A model generated the notes under the pieces. The model did no database searches. It saw nothing but the letters and a program-made list of their open reading frames with translations, and was not told where the DNA came from. A DNA stretch of 63,580 nt, filler included, from Reticulomyxa filosa (taxonomy: Eukaryota; Protista; Foraminifera): the NCBI GenBank assembly GCA_000512085.1. It is 16 parts of 16 records of this genome, joined end to end, with 100 filler letters (N's around TTAATTAATTAA, not from the genome) between each part and the next. Parts side by side here need not be neighbours in the genome. Positions count along the whole stretch, not along the records: positions 22,018 to 24,767 come from ASPP01012037.1; 15 more parts are not named here. One strand, written 5' to 3'. The translations under genes were made by a program, and so were the position numbers. Position 1 is the stretch's first letter. The number at the start of each line of letters is the position of its first letter. Shown one piece after another: positions 3,820-62,423 of this stretch.

Positions 3820-4320
3820 CGATACCAAATGTATCTGGCTTTGCTACTGTTTGATCAAACTGCAAAAAAAAAAAAAAATAGATAAATGCATTGTTCGGTT
3901 GTAGCCGATTTCTTTTCTATCTTAAAAAAAAAAAAAAAAAATGTTTTTTTTTGCTATGCTGTTTTACCACAAAACATTGGAACTCTCCACGGCTTGTTTT
4001 TGTTTTTTATATCATTATTTCCATTCACACTTATTTTAACAACTGACAACAATTAGTTCATACTCATTAATCATGTGTTAATTAAGTTATCTTCTTTGAC
4101 AAACCAAGAAATACCGCACAAGGTGAATTTTTTTGGTGTTTAGATATTTGCCATTATATGTTCGGAAGATGGTAATAATACTAAACTTCTACCGTTCATA
4201 TGTTATGTGGTCTTTATTAGTTTGTTTACTAAAAAAAAAGCAAAGAAATTTAGTTTTCTAGTCGTGTGGGTCCAGTTTTTTTTAGCGAGGAAAAAAATCT
4301 CAAATTCTACTGAAAGTATC

Positions 4321-6644
4321 ATGGATAATGCACCAGCCCCATCTGTTTATATTAAAACAAGTCCAAGAGATTCCGAAGTAGAAAAGGCACAAAATATAAA
4401 TAGCGCAACGCCATTTGTAACATTACCGTCCTTACCAGTCCCAATTTCTCGTGGCCAGTGTGTGGTTTATGATCAGGAAGTTCTCATTTGTGGGGGTTTA
4501 TATACAAGAGATTGCTATTCCTATCACGTACTCGAAAAAAAGTATAAAAAAATTTGCAGTTATCCAAAGGATGTTAAATTACGTGGACATAGTGTGGTAA
4601 AGCGCGTGAACAGCAATACAAATGACACGATGTTGCTCTCTTTTGGTGGATATAAAAATGAGAAAAAGCATACATTGACGATGAAATATGTAAGTGTCTG
4701 GAATGGTGAAAAGCAAACAAGCAATTGTAATCAATGGCTTCCTTTGATGGATAAAAACGAAGACAAGCCTATTATCATTGGTGGAGATGAGGATGATTAT
4801 GATGGAATGCGTTCGGTAATTGGTGGAAGCAATAACCATTTATTGTTCATTACGTATCGACCAAAGAATATTGACGTGTTTAACTTGGACACGTTCCAAT
4901 ATGTCAACCGCGGTATCTTGCCAAGTGATAATTGGATATATTTCCATGGTTTTGTGTCAAAGACAAAAAGTGAGTTGACATCAACATCAACGGAGGCAAA
5001 TGAAAAAAAGAGTGAAATGATATTGTTCCAAAGGAAAACTGGATTGGCCATTGAGTATGACGAGGACAGCAAATCATTCGACTTTCGTAAATTGTCTGTT
5101 TTTGATGATATGGCACCGCTTAGCGAATATGCACATGTTTGTATCAACGACACGATTTTGTTTTTTGGTGGACATGGTGGTCCTAAGCTTGGCGTTTCAA
5201 AGGCAATACATAAGTATTCGCTAAAAGAAAATACATGGGTCAAATTTGAACATAATTTGTCTACCCCGTTGAGTGACTGTGTTTCAGTGTTGAGCGAAGA
5301 CAACACGTATGTGCACATTCTTGGCGGCTTTAATGATCATCGTGACGAAATGACAATACATGTGAAGACAAAGGCAACTGATTGGATGGATGAAAAGGAA
5401 AAAGAAAAAATGCAAATCTACAACAGAGAAAAAGAACTTGAAAAAGAAAAAAACAGAAAAAAACTTCAGGCGAGTCATTTTTTTTGCTGCTGTTTGTTTT
5501 TTTATTTATGTTGTTTATGATTATTATTTGAACAGAACATAGAACAAAATAAACAACTGTGCAACCAAGTCATGGTGTATTTTTTTTTCATATTTTTAAA
5601 ACATATACGCTATGATCTAAGCAAATTATATTATTTACTAAAAAAAAAAAAAAAAAGGTTAACGGCATATGTTACAATCAATGATAAAGAAATGCCTATC
5701 TTTTTGATACGTTGACTTCTGAAGAGCTGCTTCACCGAAGTTATCAATGTTTAGGATTAAAAGATTTGGAAAACATGCGAACAATGAATCTGAAATTGGA
5801 ATTGTTCAATACGGATAACCAAATTGTGCAAACCGATGGAGATGTCCTTAAAGCTTTCGAAAAACGACAATTAAAGTTCAAAGCCATTTGGAAAAATGAA
5901 GGCAAAAAAAAATTGGTTAAAAATGCATTGGTGGTAATGATTGCCATTAGCGAATACAATGAAACTACTCCATGGCCCAATTTAAAAAATGTAAAAGTAG
6001 AGACTTGAAAAATTTTCAAGAATTGTTTGAAAAAAGAAATGAAATTTACATTTGTGTATAATAAATCACCAAAAATGAATAAAGAAGACGTGGAAGAATT
6101 TTTGGATGGGCTGGCTTTCAATTACAAGCTCCGAAAAAATACAAATCAATATGATGGATTTATTGTTATTCTTTGTGGACACGGCGATGACGGTAATGTA
6201 TTGGTGACAAGTGAAGGAAGCTCAGTTTCAATTGATAAAATTCGTTCTTCTTTTAATTGTCATGAAATGGAATCATTACAAGATTGTCCCAAAATATTTA
6301 TTATTGATGCCTGTCGTGGTCGTAATAAGCCTATTTCTTATCCAGTTGTGTTCAGAGGTTTTGAAACTTCTACCAAAGCGTTCCAAATGCACGGACATAA
6401 CGACGATGGCTTTTTGACTATTTGGTCAACTACCAAAGGTCATGTCGTAAGTGACTCTTCATTATTGAGTGAACACATGAAAGGAGTTATTACTGAATTC
6501 CACAAGAAAAACTATACATTTAATCAAATGCTGCACCAAATTCGTGACCGAATTCGAAAAAGTAAGTCAGGTGAATGGTATTGTGTAGAAAGTCAAGATA
6601 CCACAAATTACGATATTATTTTTGCTGCAAATAGTAGCACGTAA
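4321..6644 (+). CDS. Kelch-repeat protein fused to a C-terminal caspase-like (peptidase C14) domain; frame broken at homopolymers
   Basis: Kelch blades with GG motifs (VLICGG, LLSFGG, SVIGGS, ILFFGG, VHILGG), a coiled coil, two short introns (~5470-5657), then a caspase fold 'NALVVMIAISEY...ILCGHG...PKIFIIDACRG' with His/Cys dyad. Three single-base indels (~5703, ~5995, ~6033) must be corrected to obtain one reading frame. Confidence 0.75.
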
Positions 6645-12837: not shown

Positions 12838-14358
12838 TCATAAACACACAAACACAATCCAAAAAAAAAAAAAAAGAGCGACAAGAAAATTATTTTTCTT
12901 GACATCCTCATCGAGTTTATGAAAGCCACACAAAGTGAGAATGACCTGAGCATAGACTTGGTTTTTGGTCTGAAGATGTTTGAGCACCCATTGACGAAAC
13001 TCCTCCCTGCCATAGGCCTGCAGAATGTTGCAGAGATCGACTTCAGCACGACTGACAATGATACGCGTGAGCATTTCGTAATGTTTGCCAGGAGTGACGA
13101 CAGCTTTGCGCAAGAGATCGGCCAAGAGTTCATATCTGCGCGTGGCATAATAAAGGGTGATATTGCACGCGTAGCCAGTTTCGCTTTGTTCTTTGAATGA
13201 CTGTTTGATGACTTGAATCAGGTCTTTTCCCTGAGAAATTTGTTGAAAGGCCACGGCCATGGCAGCCAAATGTTCATAGCTACGTAGACTAAAGATTTCC
13301 ACAAATGGGGATTTGTCGAGTTTATCAGACTGCGACGCTTTGACAAGCATATGTGCATCTTGCAACACAATCTGTTCATCGATGGGTACGACATCACTGA
13401 CACGACCTTTTTCAAGCAGATTGCTAAAGAAGCCATAAATGGTACGTTTATGGAAGAACCAACCCGATGTCTGATCCAACACACTTTTCACTAAAGGGGT
13501 CTTTGGATACAGACGGTCGTACGCGGCATGTGCGAGACGTACGTGCTCCGCCGACGGCATGGTACATAAGATCGTTAGCAATAGGTTCACCGACTTCTTA
13601 CGCAGTGCAACATGCAACCAATGTGCATCGTAGTCGAACCTCGTCATCGTCAATGCCGAAAGGATGTCTTGTAACTTATTCTTTGTGTTGCCACGGATTA
13701 ACTTATGCAAATGATGCGACTTGTGCTTCGTACCGTATGCCAACACCACTTGCATACGCTGATCCTCGTTTAGCACGCACAGCTCGTGGATCAATACATC
13801 CACTATGTTCGCCTTCTTTTGAAACCATTTGCTTGCTACTTGATGTATACGTTTCGCAGTCGCTTCAGCATCAAACTCATCCTTATGCACACCCAACAAT
13901 GTCGGAATCGCTGGCACTGTCGATGGTAATGCCAATTTCCCTTCCGGTTCCAAATATGCCTCACTCACGTCAATACCCAAATCTTCACTCAATAACATTG
14001 CTTGCATTGGTATATAAGCCACACTCTCGGCGCGCTGTTGCACTACTTCAGTATCTATTTCATTCTTCTCATTGCTATTGCTATTGCTATTGCTATTGCT
14101 ATTCATACTTTTGCCATTGCTATTCTCGTGTTCTTCTTTCTGATCGCTTGCCAAGTGCGGCATTGCCCCCGGCTCTAGTAGGTAACTTTCGTCGTCCAAC
14201 GCCTCTTGTGGAGGCGCGCTTGGCTCGTTACTCACCATGCTTGCTATGCTTCCTATGTTCCTTTCGTCCGTTGACACGCCGCCTGGCTCCACGCTTTCCT
14301 TCTTATTTAATAGCGCTTTCAGGTCTGGGTACGATGGAGCGTCAAGCTCAAGGTCCAT
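12838..14358 (-). CDS. Divergent annexin with long acidic N-terminal extension
   Basis: Four annexin-like repeats ('FDAEATAKRIHQ', 'FDYDAHWLHVAL..LLLTILCT', 'QDAHMLVKA..FVEIFSLRSYEHL', 'LADLLRKAV..LTRIIVSRAEVDLCNI'). The last ~20 aa of the ORF are probably intron, so the true 3' end is uncertain. Confidence 0.8.
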   Translation of the reverse strand: MDLELDAPSYPDLKALLNKKESVEPGGVSTDERNIGSIASMVSNEPSAPPQEALDDESYLLEPGAMPHLASDQKEEHENSNGKSMNSNSNSNSNSNEKNEIDTEVVQQRAESVAYIPMQAMLLSEDLGIDVSEAYLEPEGKLALPSTVPAIPTLLGVHKDEFDAEATAKRIHQVASKWFQKKANIVDVLIHELCVLNEDQRMQVVLAYGTKHKSHHLHKLIRGNTKNKLQDILSALTMTRFDYDAHWLHVALRKKSVNLLLTILCTMPSAEHVRLAHAAYDRLYPKTPLVKSVLDQTSGWFFHKRTIYGFFSNLLEKGRVSDVVPIDEQIVLQDAHMLVKASQSDKLDKSPFVEIFSLRSYEHLAAMAVAFQQISQGKDLIQVIKQSFKEQSETGYACNITLYYATRRYELLADLLRKAVVTPGKHYEMLTRIIVSRAEVDLCNILQAYGREEFRQWVLKHLQTKNQVYAQVILTLCGFHKLDEDVKKNNFLVALFFFFWIVFVCL

Positions 14359-14571
14359 GTTGCCTTTTTGCAGTAGTGCACGGAAGATGGATGACGGAAA
14401 AGAAAATAAAGCTATTCATATATATATATATATATATCTACCTTGTGTCATTCTAGCTCAATTGATTTCGANNNNNNNNNNNNNNNNNNNNNNNNNNNNN
14501 NNNNNNNNNNNNNNNTTAATTAATTAANNNNNNNNNNNNNNNNNNNNNNNNNNNNNNNNNNNNNNNNNNNN

Positions 14572-21917: not shown

Positions 21918-22125
21918 NNNNNNNNNNNNNNNNNNNNNNNNNNNNNNNNNNNNNNNNNNNNTTAATTAATTAANNNNNNNNNNNNNNNNNNNNNNNNNNN
22001 NNNNNNNNNNNNNNNNNTTTTTTTTTTCAATTGAAAGAGATTTAAAAAAAAAAAAAAAGAGTTTGTTTGTTTAAATATACGTACTCTCTTTTTTTTTTTT
22101 TCCCCCTTTTTTTTTTCTTAATTAG

Positions 22126-24710
22126 TGAGAACGAAAAGAGGGGTTTTGAGCTACCGCCTACAGAATGGAGCCTGGGATATGGTTGCACTTGGCAGGAGGA
22201 GAGTTCTCAAGACATTGGGGAAGGTGGTATAAAGGCAAAGAATGTGACATTGAATGTGCAAAACAAAGTGGACATGGCGAAAGGATTTGCTCCGGAGCTA
22301 TTGGATGCAAATGGAATATTAAAAATTAAAGCACGAGACGTTAAAATGCAAGGATATCAATTACAGAGCGACACAAAAAGTTCGTCGCTATCCGCAAGTG
22401 TTGCTACTGACATGACAAAAATAACTCCCTCTGCGTGTTTTTCAAAATCGACAAAGTCGGAAATAAAAGCAGTTCACACGACACTTAACCCAAAGAATAC
22501 CCACATAGAAGCAGACAATGTAAATCTGATCGGCGTGAACGTGAATGCTCGCATGACAGGCCGTGTAAAAAAAATGGAGGCTGTAGCTATGCAGAGCACT
22601 ACGACCGAGTGCACCAATGGAGGTAAAGTCTCGGGAGAATATAGGGGACAATGGACTGGAGGGGAAATAGGTTATCAGCAAAAGCAATTGCGCAATGTAA
22701 CCACCGAAAAGATGGATCTTGTTGCCCTACATGGAAGTACTTTGGAAATTGACAGTGCACGTCTCACCTCGGTGCAAGATAGTGGGATAGTGGCGAATGA
22801 CGTAGCTCGAAACGAACTCAAGGACGTAGCGGAAAAGATGGAAATGGAATTTGGTCTTGGTGTCCACGCGAATGGATTTGAGGCTTCTGCACAAATAGAT
22901 AAAAGTGGATTTGATGCAGAGCATGGTAATTTTAGCTTGAAAGCGAAAATCAGGAATAGAGGACTCGATATGCATGTCAAAGATGGCGAACGCGAAGCTG
23001 GTGTTCAGCTCAGTACCAATGGATTTAATGCGCATATCAAAGATGGCGAACGCGGAGCTGGTGTTCAACTCAATACCAATGGATTTGATGCGCATATCAA
23101 AGATGGCAAACACGGAGCCAGTGTTCAACTCAATGCCAAGGGGTTTGGAGTGCATGTCAAAGATGGCGAACGCGAAGCCGGTGTTCAAATCAATACCAAC
23201 GGATTTGATGCACATATCAAAGATGGCGAACGCGAAGCTGGTGTTCAACTTAATACCAATGGATTTAATGCGCATATCAAAGATGGCAAACACGGAGCCG
23301 GTGTTCAATTCAATGCCAATGGATTTGATGCACATATCAAAGATGGCGAACGCGAAGCTGGTGTTCAAATCAATACCAATGGATTTGATGCACATATCAA
23401 AGATGGCAAACACGGAGCCGGTGTTCAACTCAATGCCAAGGGATTTGGGGTACATGTCAAAGATGGAGAACACAAAGCCGGTATTTACATCAATGACAGT
23501 GGGCTCGATAGTTCTTTCAATGAGCAACATATGAGTATACGTTTTGATCCATGCTACAACGGATATCAAGTTGGTGCAGGAATGAGGGATATGGAATTTA
23601 ATGCAATGTTCAATGGACACACTGTGGGCGCTGAGTTATGCGATCAACAATGTAGTGCGCATTTTGATGACAATGCACTCAACTTGCAAATGAAAGACAA
23701 AAAATTTGATGCCAAAATCAATCAACACAATTTTGGCGCGCAAAAACTAGAAAACGGATTTCATGCGTATTGTGATGACTACAAACTTGGTTTGCAGATG
23801 AAAGACAAAGGATTTGATGCCGAAATTAATCAACATAATTTTGGCGTGCAAAAACTAGAAAAAGGATTTCATGCGTATTGTGATGACTACAAACTTGGTT
23901 TGCAGATGAAAGACAAAGGGTTTGATGCCGAAATTAATCAACATAATTTTGGCGCGCAAAAAATAGAAAATGGATTCGCTGGCCATTATAACGATCACAA
24001 CGTCACGTTGCAAAAAGAAGATAAAGGAGTGAAGGGGACGTATAACGAAAACCAGTTTGGCGCAAGCAGAACAGAAAACGGAGTCGCTGGATATTATAAT
24101 GATCACAAAGTCACGCTGCAAAAAGAAGATGAAGGAGTGAAGGGAACGTATAACGAACATCAGTTTGGTGCACACAGGACAGAAAACGGAGTCGCTGCAT
24201 ACGTCGATAAGCACAAGGCTGGAGCCAGATTAGATAGTGATGGGTTTACTGCATACATTGATCAAAAAAATGTACACATCACCGCCAAGCAAGCAGCAAT
24301 AGCGACGTGTGTCACTGCTACTGTTGCTGTTGCTTATGGCTTATATAGAGTACTAAAGCTGAACAACTTGGAAGATGCCATTCAGAGTGCAAACAAAGAA
24401 AAGCGTATGCTAGAAGTACTAAAAAAAAAATTGGACAATCCGAACGATGTGATCAAGGTTATTTACGAAAAATGTTTGATCAACCCATTGAAAGAGACCT
24501 GCACAACTGCATTACCGCAGCTGTTTATTGAATTTTTCTGCAAATTTTGTGTGGACCAAACACTCAACATAACCACTCAAGACTATCTCAATCTACCCTT
24601 TTGCTACGCTCACCCGTTTCAAAAGAGTGGATTGAAGCTATTGTCAATAATGATCATTCTGCCATTATTCAATATACTCATAGCTTTGTTATTGCAAATA
24701 TCATCCCTTG
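22126..24710 (+). CDS. Large internal exon of a haemagglutinin-repeat (FHA-2-like), beta-repeat membrane protein
   Basis: About 860 open codons between a T-rich acceptor (ttaattag) and a GTTTGT donor. The N-part resembles TpsA haemagglutinin repeats, followed by 20-aa and 36-aa tandem repeats, a TM helix 'AAIATCVTATVAVAYGLY' and a second hydrophobic segment. Confidence 0.7.
22960..23490 (+). repeat. 60-bp coding tandem repeat, about 8.5 copies (GFDAHIKDGEREAGVQLNTN)
   Basis: Successive 60-nt lines 22981-23461 all begin 'agatgg' and are nearly identical. Confidence 0.95.
23680..24200 (+). repeat. 108-bp (36-aa) coding repeats, two sub-families
   Basis: LQMKDKxFDAxINQHNFGxQKLExGFHAYCDDYKLG occurs ~2.5 times, then GxAGxYNDHxVTLQKEDxGVKGTYNExQFGAxRTEN twice. 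Confidence 0.9.
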
Positions 24711-24724
24711 GTTTGTACCAAACT

Positions 24725-24767
<43 letters not shown>

Positions 24768-30050: not shown

Positions 30051-31462
30051 TCAAGCATCTTGTAATTTCCCTTCTTTTGCCAAGCACATCTTACCAATTA
30101 AACCTGTTAATTGAAGTGGTGAATCGAGACCATCTGCAATTCTTGCATGAATGAACCCCATTTCCTGTAATGTTCCGTTATGTGCTTTAATTAAGAAAAA
30201 TCCCAGAACAACAAAAAGAAACAAAACTCGGATCCACTTGAGTCTCAGATTGTCATCCATTTTATGTGTCTTTGTGACTCGAAATAAGGTGCTAATGAAA
30301 TCCAACGTCGAATGTCCTTGGGCCAATAGATGCTGCACACAATTAATAGCATTTATGACATCTCCATCTTTACAGTGATCTAAAATGGTGGCCATTGCTT
30401 TAGGATGTGGTACGTCACATACTTTGTACACATTTTCTGCTGTTATCGTTTTAAAACCGGCATAAGTTGCCTGCAAACCGTTAATTCCATTTCGCATATC
30501 CCCATCACTCACAAATAATAGTGCTTCTAAGCCTCCATTAGTGTAACTTTGCACCTTTTTTTTTTTGAATATTGAATTTAACACAATTTTTAAAAAAAAA
30601 CAAACATACACGCAAACTCACTTAGTTTTGTCATTTAATATTTTTGAACCTTCCCCCTTTTTTTTTTACAACCAAATATGACCACTATTCGAAAACTACA
30701 TTTTTTTAAAAAAAAAAGCATTAACATTTTCTTCTTTCAAAATTTCTAAAATTCTTTGCAAAATTTGTTGATCTGTCAATCGAGTGTAGCGCAAAATCGC
30801 GCAGCGTGATTGAACAGGTTCGATAATCTTGGAGGAAATATTACACGCCAGAGCAAATCTTGTGGTGTTGCTATAAAGTTCCATTGTTCGTCGCAAAGCT
30901 TGTTGTGCTGCTGGTGTCATGCTAATTGTGTAAATTAATATTTTTTTGAATTGCATTTGTCTAGCTAAGATTTTATCTCCAATATTTTAATAAAAAAAAA
31001 TACCTGTCAGCTTCATCGAGAATGATAATCTTATGTCTGCCAGGGGGGAGTGTAATCTTTTGCTGTGCAAACATTTTAATTTTGTTTCGCACGACATCAA
31101 TACCTCTATCATCACTAGCGTTCAATTCTAACACCCCTTGTTTGTAATGCTGCCCCAATAACTCAAAGGCCAGACAATGGATGGAAGTTGTCTTCCCTGT
31201 TCCTGGAGGGCCACTGATCAATAAATTGGGCATATTGCCATTTTTTGCTATTACTTTTAAACGGGATATTGTCTCCTCGTTCCCTACCACGTCTTTCAAT
31301 ACTCGGGGACGATACTTTTCCAACCACGGCATTTCTAATTGCACTTTTATACACAACAAAACCAGTTTTGTTCTAACACTCCATGAATGTGTAGAATAAA
31401 CTTTGCGATTAATTAAGACGAAAAAATTTAAAACCTGATTTCGTTTCATTCGCATCTTTCAT
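30051..31462 (-). CDS. RFC2: Replication factor C small subunit (human RFC2 / yeast RFC4), 5 exons
   Basis: PWLEKYRP, Walker [32 protein letters not shown], Walker B ILDEAD|SMT, SRC motif, GDMR. Four GT-AG introns restore the frame; the first exon is MKDANETKS. Confidence 0.95.
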
Positions 31463-33117: not shown

Positions 33118-34547
33118 ATGGTTTAGTATATTGCACTGCATCGCATTTGTGTTTTAATATTTTTGAAAGACAACTTGGTAGCTGGCTAATAAAAATAAAA
33201 ATAAAATGATTAGGCCAGCCGTTACGACCGCAAGACAACAACATTTTCACCAGACGGACGTTTATTTCAAGTAGAATATGCAATGGAAGCAATTCAAAAA
33301 GCAGGAGCATGTCTGGGGATCGTCTTCAAAGACGGGATCATAATGGTAGGTGAAAAGAATATTCAATCCAAGCTGTGGATCCCAGAGCGCTCTGAGAAAT
33401 TTGCCAAAATCGACTCACATATTGTGTTAAGCGTCATCTATTTTTTGCGATACAAATACGACCACAGCAAAGTGAGCACACTGTCAATAAAAAAAAAACA
33501 AATTACTCTAAAGTTACAATTTTTTTTTTTTCTTTTTTAAATAGAGTGGCCATTGCAGGTGTGACATCAGATGCGAACATATTAGTGGACAATGCTCAAT
33601 TAAATGCCGCCCGTTACAAATACAAATATCAAGTTTATTAAAAAAAAAAAATTTTTTGTTAGAAAAAAAAAAATTGGTTTGTAACCTCATTCTCAAGCAA
33701 AACATATGTCCACAAAGCAAATATGATCATACAACATAATAACTGTGTCCAAATGACTTTAGGAATCCATCCCAGTGGAAATGTGTGTTCATGACACATG
33801 CAACTACACGCAATCTTTCACGCAATTTGGTGGACTGCGACCTTTTGGGGTGTCTATGTTATGGGCCGGGTATGACACTGAAGAAGGCTTCCAATTGTTC
33901 CATTCCGATCCTTCTGGAAATTATGGTATGTTTAAACAAATTCACTTTTTTATTTGTGTATATATAATATATATTATATGTGTTATATATGTATATGTTT
34001 GTATGTATGTGTATATCTTTTTAATAAATATTAGACCAAATATAATTCTTGCTATCAATAATTTAATGATTGCTTTTTTTTTTGTTTGTTTGATAATATT
34101 ATTGGACACAGCCGAATGGCAGGCAACTGCTATTGGATCGAATGCTAAATCTGCACAATCGATATTGAAAGAAGATTATAACGAAAAGTTGACAAAAGAT
34201 GTTAAGTGTGTGTCATTTTTTTTTTTTTTTCAACTGCTTGGATTTTTTATTTTCTTCACAGGATGCAATTGAATTGTGCATCAAGATATTGACAAAAACC
34301 ATGGATTCTCCTTCTTTGGATTCAGAAAAATGTTATGTATTTTTTTTTAAACCACTTAAAAAAAATTTGTTGAATAATTTTTATAAAATTTGATTGGTGT
34401 AATTTCCTCCCCCCCTTTTTAGTGGAGATATGCTTACTGTACAAGGAAGAAGAAAGGGTTGTTTATCGTCAAATGCAGCCAAAGGAACTGGATGAACGCA
34501 TCAAAAAATACAAAGAGACACACAAAGATGAAAAACCAGAAGAATAA
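33118..34547 (+). CDS. PSMA4: 20S proteasome subunit alpha-3 (7 exons)
   Basis: M|ASRYDRKTTTFSPDGRLFQVEYAMEAI, AIAGVTSDAN, TQFGGLRPFGVS, SDPSGNY, WQATAIG. Six GT-AG introns; the first directly follows the ATG. Confidence 0.95.
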
Positions 34548-54469: not shown

Positions 54470-56172
54470 CAACGATTACATGGGAGTCAAGGCCAAAAAA
54501 TGTCCTGAAATTATCCAATTGTTGAATCAATTAAAAGTTATTATACTATTGACTTACTCTTTTTTTTTTTTTTTTTTCTTACACTTTGTATTTTCTATAA
54601 AAACAAAAATTTTTAAAAAAAACGTGGACGATAACATAAAAACATATGAACGACAACATAGGACAATACACCCAATTGCAAAATTGCACTAGTCGTTAAG
54701 GACGTCGACAGCAAAAAAATCTCACAAAAAATTTTAGAAAACGTCTTTTATGCTCCGGAAAAAGAACAACAAAATGGTTTGCAACAGTGTATCAACGAAT
54801 TGAAAGAGTGGTTGGGTAAGCATACAGACACATTGACGCCAGCACCAAATGACCAACCATGGTGGGAAAAAATTGAGTCTTTGCATTTGGCTCTACCTTT
54901 CGAATGTGTGGAGTTATTTGACACGAATGTTGCTGGACAGTCAATGTCCCAAGTTTAACTTGATCAAATTAAACAAAATTACATTTTTTTTTTATTTTAT
55001 TAAACATGATTGCCGCTGTAACTTGGGGGATGGGGGGAAAAAGCACGAGTTTAACAGCCGTTATGCTTTGATGGCAAAATTTCGTAATGAAGCAAACAGG
55101 GTCTTAGGCACTATTCGCAATGACACCAAACAACAATTGCTGCCTTTTGAACAATGGAAAAGGCAATATGACGAACTGGAAAAAAAAGGAGGTCAGTACA
55201 GAGTTTTAAAACAACTAAAACAAGTCGTCATGAGTGCGGTGAAAGCAAAGACTAGTCCTCTATTTGATTTGTATCAAAAGTATTGTCTATTACCGTTGTA
55301 TTGTGATAAAAATCCTGCAGAAGGAAACAAAGATGAAAAACTTGCTTATAAAGCATGGCAACAAGAAGAAATGTTATATGTATTAGAAAATGTTTTACAC
55401 GAGAGAAATCAAGTATGCTTTGCCAAAGAAAGGGAAGAATGTAAACATTTGAAAAGACAATATGAAACAGAAGGTAACAAAGATAAAAAAGAAAGACTTT
55501 GAAAAAATATTGAAAAACTAACAAAAGAGATCCAAGAAAAGCAAATTACTGCTTACAATCTTTTCAAAGACGCAATGGCAATGATTGATTTTATTGAAAA
55601 ATACAAAGTTTTTTTTTTTGTTAAACTGGGGTTTTTAATGTACTGAAAAAATAGTAAAATAAATAATGTTTATTAAAAAAAAAAGGAGCTTCCAGATAAT
55701 CAATGGTATAAGATTCCACTTGAAACACGGATAATACTTACTGAGTTTTCTCAACGAGCGTATAACTTCGGAAAAAGGTTGTTCGAAATAGGGACCCCAG
55801 TCGAATTTTGTGATGGAAATGAAGGTCGAATGAATGATACAATGATTGATAATGTATTCATGTGTAAAACGAAAGCAAATAAACAAGTGGTATCTGTGGC
55901 TGTGGCAGGTCCTCAGTCTTCTGGAAAATCGACACTGCTACGACGTTTGTTTGGAATTGATGCAAGAGCATCTGCAGGACGAACGACGAAAGGAATAAAT
56001 TGTTGTCGAATAGATTGTGATGACAAAGAAATTATATTGGTGGACTCAGAAGGAGTAGGAGCCACTGAGGTGCTTTCCGAACAAAAGGAAGCGGATAGTG
56101 GAACGAAAAAAGATAACAAAATAATTTTGGGTGCATTGGCGAGCAGTCGTGTGTTCATCTTAAATTTTATGA
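54470..56172 (+). CDS. Very large inducible GTPase (VLIG/GVIN, GB1/RHD3 class)-like protein, internal fragment
   Basis: G1 'VAGPQSSGKSTLL..LFG', G2 'SAGRTTKG', G3 'LVDSEG', then 'DNKIILGALASSRVFILN'. Helical exons lie upstream. Truncated on both sides. Confidence 0.7.
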
Positions 56173-60711: not shown

Positions 60712-62423
60712 ATGTCAGTTCATGCTGTGTTTGTAACAGACAAAACAGGCAAGCCCTTGATCTCTAGGAATTTTCGAAGAAAGATTCCTCTTTCCATTCC
60801 TAAAGATTTCCAGCGCTTTTTAGCGGAAGGAGAAGCTTTTGATCGTCGTCCAGTGTTCGTGAAGAACGACATTTCATTTGTTTACATTGAACACAGTGAT
60901 CTTTTCAGTTTTGAGTATTTACTCAATCAAAAAAAATAAAGTAAATGTGGATCAAAAAGAGAGTAATGATATTATGTATTTGAAAATTGACCACAGTATT
61001 AAGCATAACTCAAGGGAATGCCAATGTAGTGTTGATATTGAGTTTTTTGAATAAAATTGTGGAGGTTTGTAGCAAAGACTGCTCTTGGGTAATTGATCAT
61101 TTGATGTGTCTATTTTTTTGTTTTTTAAAAATGGAATAATTTGCACGAAAAGGTGTTTGAGAATTATTTTGGCCAGTTGGAACAAAGATCAGTCCGAGAT
61201 AATTTTGTGCTGATATATGAACTCTTTGATGAAATGTGTGATTTTGGATATCCCCAGTGTACAGATCCAAAAATGTTCAAGGATTACATTTGTGTGCAAG
61301 AGATACACAAGTTGGAAAGACCGAATAATATCATTGATTTGGCAGGCATAATCGGTATGGCATCACCATGGAAAGACGAAAGAATTGTTTATAAAAATAA
61401 TGAAGCATTTTTGGATGTTGTCGAAAAATTGAATTTATTAGTTTTGATCAATTTTGCTTTGCTTTTCCTCTGCATTTTTTTATTCCTTTTTTTCTTTCGT
61501 AAAGATTGAGAATTTAGTATCTTTTGTTGGAAAGACAACATGGAAAGAGAACATATGCCGTGTGTATATGTGGGGACCATTGACAAGGTGGCTCCAAATG
61601 GCAATGTGTTGCACAGTGAAATATCAGGAACATTGAAAATGAGAATATTTTTGAGTGGCAAGCCCGAAATGAGATTAGGATTGAATGACAAGATCGTAAT
61701 GAAGCAATGCAGTTTTGAAAACTTGACCACGCATAAACACACATAATACGCTTTCCACCTTTTTTTTTTGTGTTCAATTCGGAACAATAACACACACATG
61801 CCACAGATAGTCGGATCAGTCCAACTAAAATGCATGATATTCGATTCCATCAATGTGCTCGTTTGCAAGCCTTTGAATCGAAAAATATAATCACATTTAT
61901 TCCTCCCGATGGAGAATTTGAATTGATGAGTTATCGATTGGATACCAAAGTTCTTCCATTGATTTCAATCAAGTGCCTCCAAAATATCAAATCTCATTCC
62001 CACGTGGAATGTATCATCAGAGCCAAATCCGAATTTAAACATAGATTTATTGCAAACAATGTGGAAATCTTTGTCCCAGTCCTAGTCCCTCTGGATGCGG
62101 GTTCATTGAAATTTAGAGTATCTCTTGGCTCTGCTGAATACGTTCCTCAGCACAATTACATTTGCTGGACTATTAAACAGTTGTACGGGCAAAAGGAATG
62201 TTTGATGCACGTCCATTTTGATTTGCCTAGAGTCAGTGCCGTCAATACTGGCCAGAAAAAAAGTGTGGAAAAAATCCCAATTCGTGTCAATTTTGAAATT
62301 CCATATCTCACTGCTTCTGGAATTCAAGTTCGACGCTTGAAGATTGTAGAAAAGAGTGGCTATCAACCGTTGTCCTGGATCAGATACACCACACAAAGTG
62401 GAGATTATCAAATTCGAATGTAA
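60712..62423 (+). CDS. AP1M1: Clathrin adaptor AP-1 mu subunit (5 exons)
   Basis: GKPLISRNFR, SVRDNFVLIYELFDEMCDFGYPQ, YKNNEAFLDVVE, LSGKPEMRLGLNDK, DIRFHQC, FIPPDGEFELMSYR, FEIPYLTASGIQVR, WIRYTTQSGDYQIR. Confidence 0.93.

Follow-up and report, generated by a model that had tools for sequence, protein, structure and literature searches.

The RFI_16211 gene of Reticulomyxa filosa probably encodes, in residues 1-258 of its product, a remote homologue of bacterial FHA-2 (Fil_haemagg_2) repeats, as judged from sequence comparisons and their controls. This region is followed by a long stalk of amphipathic repeats, a moderately hydrophobic helix and a helical tail. As a tentative explanation, we propose that an FHA-2 module of bacterial derivation is reused on a membrane-anchored surface stalk, gripping or inserting into contacted membranes.

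The gene is alone on its own contig (22018-24767, 2,750 bp, GC 0.40) in the window, i.e. the whole stretch of 63,580 nucleotides analysed here. The window consists of 16 contigs, each join having the form N44-TTAATTAATTAA-N44 (stop-codon linkers). Since the contigs were joined artificially, neighbouring genes across the linkers do not represent the genomic context of RFI_16211. The database match is hypothetical protein RFI_16211, partial, which is identical over the shared part. The contig starts within an intron, and the 5' end of the gene and its upstream exon(s) are located off the contig. A frame of 867 codons is open from 22127, and all peptides quoted in an initial annotation of this DNA, which had proposed a spliced host gene with haemagglutinin repeats of CdiA/TpsA type, lie in it. 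Features of the contig are listed in Table 1.

Table 1. Features of the RFI_16211 contig, in window coordinates
Feature	Position	Strand	Basis or remarks
Upstream intron, 3' part (predicted splicing)	22018..22125	+	A15, T13 and T10 runs; AG at 22124-22125
Long exon	22126..24522	+	Entered in phase 2, frame from 22127; exon-like by Markov model
FHA-2-like region, aa 1-258 (probable)	22127..22900	+	Profile alignments, language-model neighbours, alignment-assisted model
Unit 0, long beta-hairpin and beta-helix rungs	22127-22372	+	
Unit 1, long beta-hairpin and beta-helix rungs	22373-22597	+	
Unit 2, long beta-hairpin and beta-helix rungs	22598-22825	+	
Fourth hairpin	22826-22900	+	
20-aa hairpin repeats, about 20 strands	22901..23506	+	Period 60, 8.5 copies; one hydrophobic and one polar face
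18/36-aa hairpin repeats	23507..24271	+	Hydrophobic/polar alternation kept; pLDDT under 50
Moderately hydrophobic helix, aa 725-743	24299..24355	+	Kyte-Doolittle 1.53; helix in model; ends YGLYRVL, then basic residues
Alpha-helical C-terminal domain, first half, no known family	24356..24522	+	Model, family searches
Predicted 59-nt intron, frame-shifting, GTTTAT...TCAAG	24523-24581	+	NCBI model; Markov score
Last predicted exon	24582..24726	+	Ends with TGA 24724-24726

Relationship to bacterial FHA-2 repeats

Standard searches do not recover the relationship. In Pfam, PF13332 gave no match to residues 1-258 at E up to 1, and none to P0002 up to E 10; the gathering cut-off of this family (22 bits) is not reached by RFI_16211. 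NCBIfam gave no match for the same residues, hhalign assigned a probability of about 1% to the FHA-2 match, and local hmmsearch with the best-aligning profile returned -0.8 bits after bias correction. Search with phmmer over 1.84 billion proteins retrieved, apart from the query, only two artefacts of repeat sequence (P0003, P0004), which were rejected as homologues since they represent summed weak repeats. Identity to bacterial FHA-2 is 12-19%, too low for a tree.

Neither a paralog nor an ortholog was found in the collections searched. The region 1-260 was not detected in any of 1,128 longer candidate proteins, and among 7,993 scored proteins of similar length RFI_16211 alone matched. Plasmids, metagenome contigs and viral contigs yielded no homologue, none of five CdiA-bearing genomes had a match, and no real match was obtained in 401 genomes, 40 of them with PF13332. 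Seven genome matches at E up to 0.1 were discarded: the three free of stop codons are unrelated proteins and the other four contain stops. Nor was any solved FHA-2 relative found by sequence.

The language-model search (Atlas) pointed to FHA-2, with PF13332 present in 29 of 30 matches and a top score of 0.92 with 186 shared features; by this method's own figures, 4-10 of 100 shuffled proteins also score at 0.9. Bacterial FHA-2 regions were gathered and profiles were built without the query, PF13332 being confirmed on three of the regions. Six of nine motif-scan loci were left out as not FHA-2, and so was alignment A3, which is out of register. One PF13332 protein, P0010, comes from a 1,188-bp contig assigned to the weevil Rhynchophorus ferrugineus. 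Its score is that of an ordinary bacterial member, and it is probably a contaminant.

A profile of the last FHA-2 repeats (127 sequences) aligned residues 58-154 in register with 5.8 bits. The one-unit profile matched three to four stretches, in order, and scored 9.0 bits for the best domain. None of 2,000 shuffles and none of 629 natural decoys reached that score, and 11 and 31 of 2,000 block shuffles did; the margin narrowed on further iteration, with 15 of 2,000 shuffles in the final round. Pairwise alignment favoured the first three FHA-2 repeats, with a mean of 102.7 versus 85.6 ± 4.2 for 60 shuffles.

The profile of these first three repeats (50 sequences) aligned end to end over residues 22-255, collinear for ~235 residues. 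Scored glocally over the whole region, the query stood at z 6.3 relative to shuffles and z 5.0 relative to 10-residue block shuffles, with 0/500 reaching it in each case. The best of ten model windows gave z 5.35 (0/400 shuffles, 3/300 block shuffles), and in the query's best model window none of 250 bacterial decoys matched its score. Leaving out Pseudomonas-like rows, so that 27 of the 50 sequences remained, did not abolish the match (z 4.5-5.4, 0/400). Scored separately, units 0, 1 and 2 reached z 3.1, 5.1 and 4.3, unequalled by 500 shuffles each. When every protein was compared with its own shuffles, the query had z 5.7, as opposed to a maximum of 3.5 among 209 decoys, none of which reached z 4. 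On the raw scale the query, at -25.3, lies at the low end of ten divergent true members (-26.8 to 65.3), and one bacterial decoy scored -24.0 in a different model window, above the query's best.

The terminal-repeat profile was weaker: with z 2.4-3.8 for shuffles as the control and 0.9-2.9 for block shuffles, it fell short of the profile built from the first three repeats. The pairing of units 2 and 3 with the terminal f/g repeats did not hold up (z 1.5, 36/500 shuffles). The exact register proposed in the initial annotation is thus not established. The FHA-2 cadence described there rises above chance by shuffle and decoy controls and stays under every curated threshold, that of PF13332 included. 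Because some templates and windows for the profile tests were picked after the data had been seen, we rate homology as probable and not higher.

The single-sequence structure model had a pLDDT of 34.8, and fold search from it was discarded as meaningless. With 46 bacterial alignment rows, the P0002 model acquires a beta-helix-like N-terminus, a result that is circular to the extent that it depends on the bacterial alignment; pLDDT is 55-83 over much of residues 35-131 and under 50 over 81-95 and 132-244. With the same circularity, this N-terminus matches right-handed beta-helices, such as 4wa0 (Z 10.2, rmsd 2.5 over 124) and 1rwr (Z 8.2, rmsd 2.5 over 116), a set that includes the FHA secretion domain. 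Foldseek with the full model returned generic beta-rich matches only.

The closest known counterparts are PF13332 regions of CdiA/TpsA proteins (TpsA is defined in PMC5422565): a viral-contig record (L007) that equals a Thorsellia locus (L010), a Pseudomonas locus (L069) and a Sporomusa locus (L019). Tandem units of hairpin plus rungs, collinear and scoring above the controls as given above, are shared with them. RFI_16211 differs in that its units 1 and 2 are shorter, 75-76 aa versus about 90 in bacteria, and in its intron-like gene structure. From the domain distribution we infer a bacterial origin of the FHA-2-like region.

Stalk, hydrophobic helix and tail

The repeat stalk noted at first reading was confirmed. 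It comprises 455 residues with about 46 amphipathic beta-strands. Its 20-aa repeats, in which hydrophobic and polar residues strictly alternate, are predicted, with pLDDT about 90 and no alignment rows, to form a 20-strand antiparallel single-layer meander, and the 18/36-aa repeats likely continue this amphipathic sheet. The predicted fold of residues 259-460 resembles CPAP TCP10 (4bxp; Z 12.2, rmsd 8.6 over 160), MORN1 (6t4r; Z 11.2, rmsd 6.0 over 184) and OspA (6kk9; Z 10.3, rmsd 6.3 over 152). With no sequence family match and rmsd of 6-8.6, this likeness concerns shared arrangement only, and Pfam gave no MORN repeat match at E up to 10. The Atlas search gave no usable match for the stalk. 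A trimeric beta-prism was considered as an alternative for the stalk; the top viral match in Foldseek was a baseplate hub/tail lysozyme.

The hydrophobic helix that had been noticed after the stalk is present, with borderline hydrophobicity, and is a candidate membrane anchor. Flanking charges indicate the orientation of a membrane helix (positive-inside rule). Since aromatic and then basic residues follow the helix, a type I topology is suggested, which would place the tail in the amoeba cytosol. The tail contributes about 100 helical residues, and the view that it belongs to no known family holds for Pfam, NCBIfam, PHROG and PDB sequences, where no match was obtained.

We considered whether the FHA-2-like part might be a structural beta-helix rod in a surface-coat or scaffold protein, involved in no membrane attack and being either an old degenerate homologue or a convergent beta-solenoid. 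Such a rod is in line with the failure of every standard search, with the weak and uneven face alternation in the hairpins, with the presence of only three and a half units and with the resemblance of the stalk fold to scaffold sheets of MORN, TCP10 and OspA. Against it, three units preserve the order of hairpin plus rungs, and this pattern scores above block shuffles as well as beta-rich decoys, FHA-1-like regions among them. We regard the rod, with either origin, as unlikely.

Toxin delivery, suggested in the initial annotation, is weakened by our analysis. In CdiA, FHA-2 associates with the outer membrane of the target. According to PMC13625785, the domain is predicted to fold into a large sheet that stands out from a beta-helix, and the toxin is released at VENN after the FHA-2 step. 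By analogy, a missing N-terminus of RFI_16211 would secrete or tether the protein, FHA-2 would insert, the helix would serve entry and the tail would be novel cargo for prey or symbionts. The order of FHA-2, spacer and helical C-terminus does parallel CdiA and FhaB; the Ala/Val/Thr-rich helix is only borderline as a transmembrane anchor, and the gene may extend beyond 24711. However, RFI_16211 has a long beta-meander and a candidate anchor in place of the pre-toxin region, VENN and toxin of CdiA, and the 455-aa stalk would itself need to cross the target membrane. PT-VENN has no match in RFI_16211, whereas the bacterial L007 protein has one; a regular expression for VENN/ELYN-type motifs found LNNL only. 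Pfam, NCBIfam, PHROG and PDB sequences revealed no known toxin domain, and paralogs with variable C-termini were not found in the protein collections searched. No TpsB/CdiB, CdiI or other partner gene is present on the contig, but 2,750 bp is too little sequence to exclude one. Any counterpart of the signal peptide, TPS domain, FHA-1 filament and receptor-binding domain found at the N-terminus of CdiA/TpsA proteins would be encoded off the contig. Given that neither a VENN motif nor a known toxin domain was found, RFI_16211 is, on the sequence features tested here, not a CdiA family member; at most it would act as the FHA-2 portion of CdiA does. Delivery of the tail as cargo appears rather improbable.

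Bordetella FhaB is another possible parallel, likened by description. It likewise has an FHA-2-like domain, then an extended spacer and a small C-terminal domain with no classical toxin, which it delivers into eukaryotic cells (bioRxiv 10.1101/2025.06.17.660209), and it differs in being bacterial and in having an unstructured proline-rich spacer.

Predicted splicing and host origin

The remaining contigs of the window carry ordinary intron-rich eukaryotic genes. Those for a proteasome alpha subunit (33300-34520, plus strand), an adaptor mu subunit (61300-62423, plus strand) and an RFC small subunit (30054-31003, minus strand) supplied ten introns, delimited by eye, of 61-186 nt and nearly all with GTT(A/T) donors. 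One contig carries a gene with caspase/metacaspase domain (PF00656; 6009-6641, plus strand) together with Kelch (4144-5517) and HUN-domain (687-1646) genes. A GC-rich long exon with four annexin repeats (12841-14415, minus strand) is a second long exon in this intron-dense genome. Further, there is an intron-split gene truncated at its contig end (21250-21917, plus strand), with a weak, sub-cut-off PUB-domain match (E 1e-4), and a URGCP/GBP-like GTPase fragment (55677-56171, plus strand).

A small Markov model was trained on ten host introns and 13 coding stretches within the window; in leave-one-out mode, 9/10 introns and 13/13 exons were correctly separated. The model scores the flank 22018..22125 as intron-like (+0.32 per base, GC 0.19). 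Its AG acceptor is preceded by a polypyrimidine tract, and the last five bases, ATTAG, are those of one of the ten host introns. The 5' flank looks host-like, as stated in the initial annotation, and its splicing is predicted. The NCBI model of RFI_16211 starts with a spurious short exon and leaves out 22126-22234, by which the first FHA-2 hairpin is lost; contrary to that model, the skipped segment is exon-like (score -0.20, GC 0.50).

Beyond about 24620 the host codon model favours a different frame. The predicted 59-nt intron is one of ten frame-compatible GT-AG pairs, and its intron-likeness was matched by none of 234 59-nt windows of the exon. The NCBI gene model also uses this intron, entering the frame preferred by the host codon model. 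The frame change could instead come from a homopolymer sequencing error near 24625; the intron is preferred because it requires no error. The resulting predicted protein has 846 residues, from 22127 to TGA 24724-24726. Since the frame switches through the intron and ends at this stop, the hydrophobic stretch LLSIMIILPLF..., which had been read as the terminus in the uncorrected frame, is probably an off-frame artefact and not protein. The splice donor first placed at 24710 is uncertain. The preferred model ends at the TGA; a GT at 24711, after which the gene would continue off the contig, is a possible alternative donor because a T27 run comes next (T runs of 4-15 follow known donors, compared with 3-7 after three known stops).

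Several further observations concern the source of the contig. It contains seven T/A runs of at least 10 nt in 2,750 bp, whereas 116 bacterial loci, 633,514 bp in all, have none. GC3 is 0.377, versus 0.405 in host genes. Synonymous codon usage is as compatible with AT-rich bacteria as with the host (0.030 versus 0.028 bits per codon), so it is uninformative in this respect. Between copies of the 36-aa repeat pN/pS is 0.30 and 0.40; between copies of the 20-aa repeat it is 0.80, indicating little constraint.

The contig is very probably of host origin, in accordance with the initial claim that it is not a contaminant: homopolymer runs, intron-like flanks with a predicted internal intron, and the pN/pS of the 36-aa repeats support host location. 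We consider it improbable that the contig is a bacterial insertion, recent or dead, a chimera, or DNA from the Midichloriaceae symbiont co-sequenced with R. filosa (PMC10847448): the contig is isolated and its codon usage uninformative, and large haemagglutinin-like toxins are described in some protist Midichloriaceae (PMC11077975), but host-type homopolymer flanks occur at both ends, the frame switch is internal and intron-like, the exon is open for 2.4 kb with a purifying signal in the 36-aa repeats, and a close bacterial relative is absent from every collection searched.

The same toxins make this symbiont lineage a possible donor of the FHA-2 module. Crown Rickettsiales seldom carry FhaBC homologs. 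In Rhizaria, prokaryote-derived genes are reported to be enriched in extracellular proteins, and 69% of such genes in R. filosa to contain introns (bioRxiv 10.1101/2023.01.27.525846).

Possible function and meaning

According to the explanation that we tentatively prefer, a likely host gene probably acquired its FHA-2 module, of CdiA/TpsA type, from a bacterium. The long amphipathic beta-sheet stalk, which would be held by the single likely membrane helix, is predicted to present the module at its tip on the cell surface. RFI_16211 would then be secreted, its signal peptide being encoded off the contig. The FHA-2 tip might grip or insert into membranes of contacted cells, e.g. bacterial prey, and the helical tail might provide a cytosolic signalling or cytoskeletal link and not delivered cargo. 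Membrane insertion is proposed by analogy with CdiA and FhaB, and the target is a guess, be it prey to be captured or self in the self/non-self recognition suggested by the initial annotation.

Published descriptions bear on the grip itself. Bacterial FHA-2 penetrates membranes and is required for delivery, not adhesion (PMC13625785; bioRxiv 10.1101/2025.06.17.660209). Delivery into mammalian cells by FhaB requires FHA-2, whose loss affects adhesion modestly or barely (bioRxiv 10.1101/2025.06.17.660209), which argues against surface grip and means that a delivery role fits better. A bolder version, in which a domesticated FHA-2 harpoon on the surface of the pseudopod network grips, punctures or injects prey and represents the first eukaryote-encoded CdiA-type delivery device, seems doubtful to us.

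Reuse of bacterial toxin-system parts has precedents. The teneurin RHS/YD shell is a bacterial polymorphic-toxin part taken up by eukaryotes. Transfer of toxin-system domains to eukaryotes, likewise reused as modules of eukaryotic genes, is described in PMC3482391, where the relevant part lists toxin domains and not FilH/FHA-2 repeats. Titles and abstract openings from targeted literature searches did not mention FHA-2 repeats in a eukaryote, which is weak evidence, and transfer of genes from bacteria to Rhizaria is itself common (bioRxiv 10.1101/2023.01.27.525846).

The finding rests on one truncated gene without relatives. In CdiA and FhaB, penetration of the target membrane is the task of FHA-2 (PMC13625785; bioRxiv 10.1101/2025.06.17.660209). 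If a copy functions within a eukaryotic gene and no TPS transporter is involved, the module would be portable. If the preferred explanation is true, RFI_16211 would be a concrete candidate for prey capture by reticulopodia.
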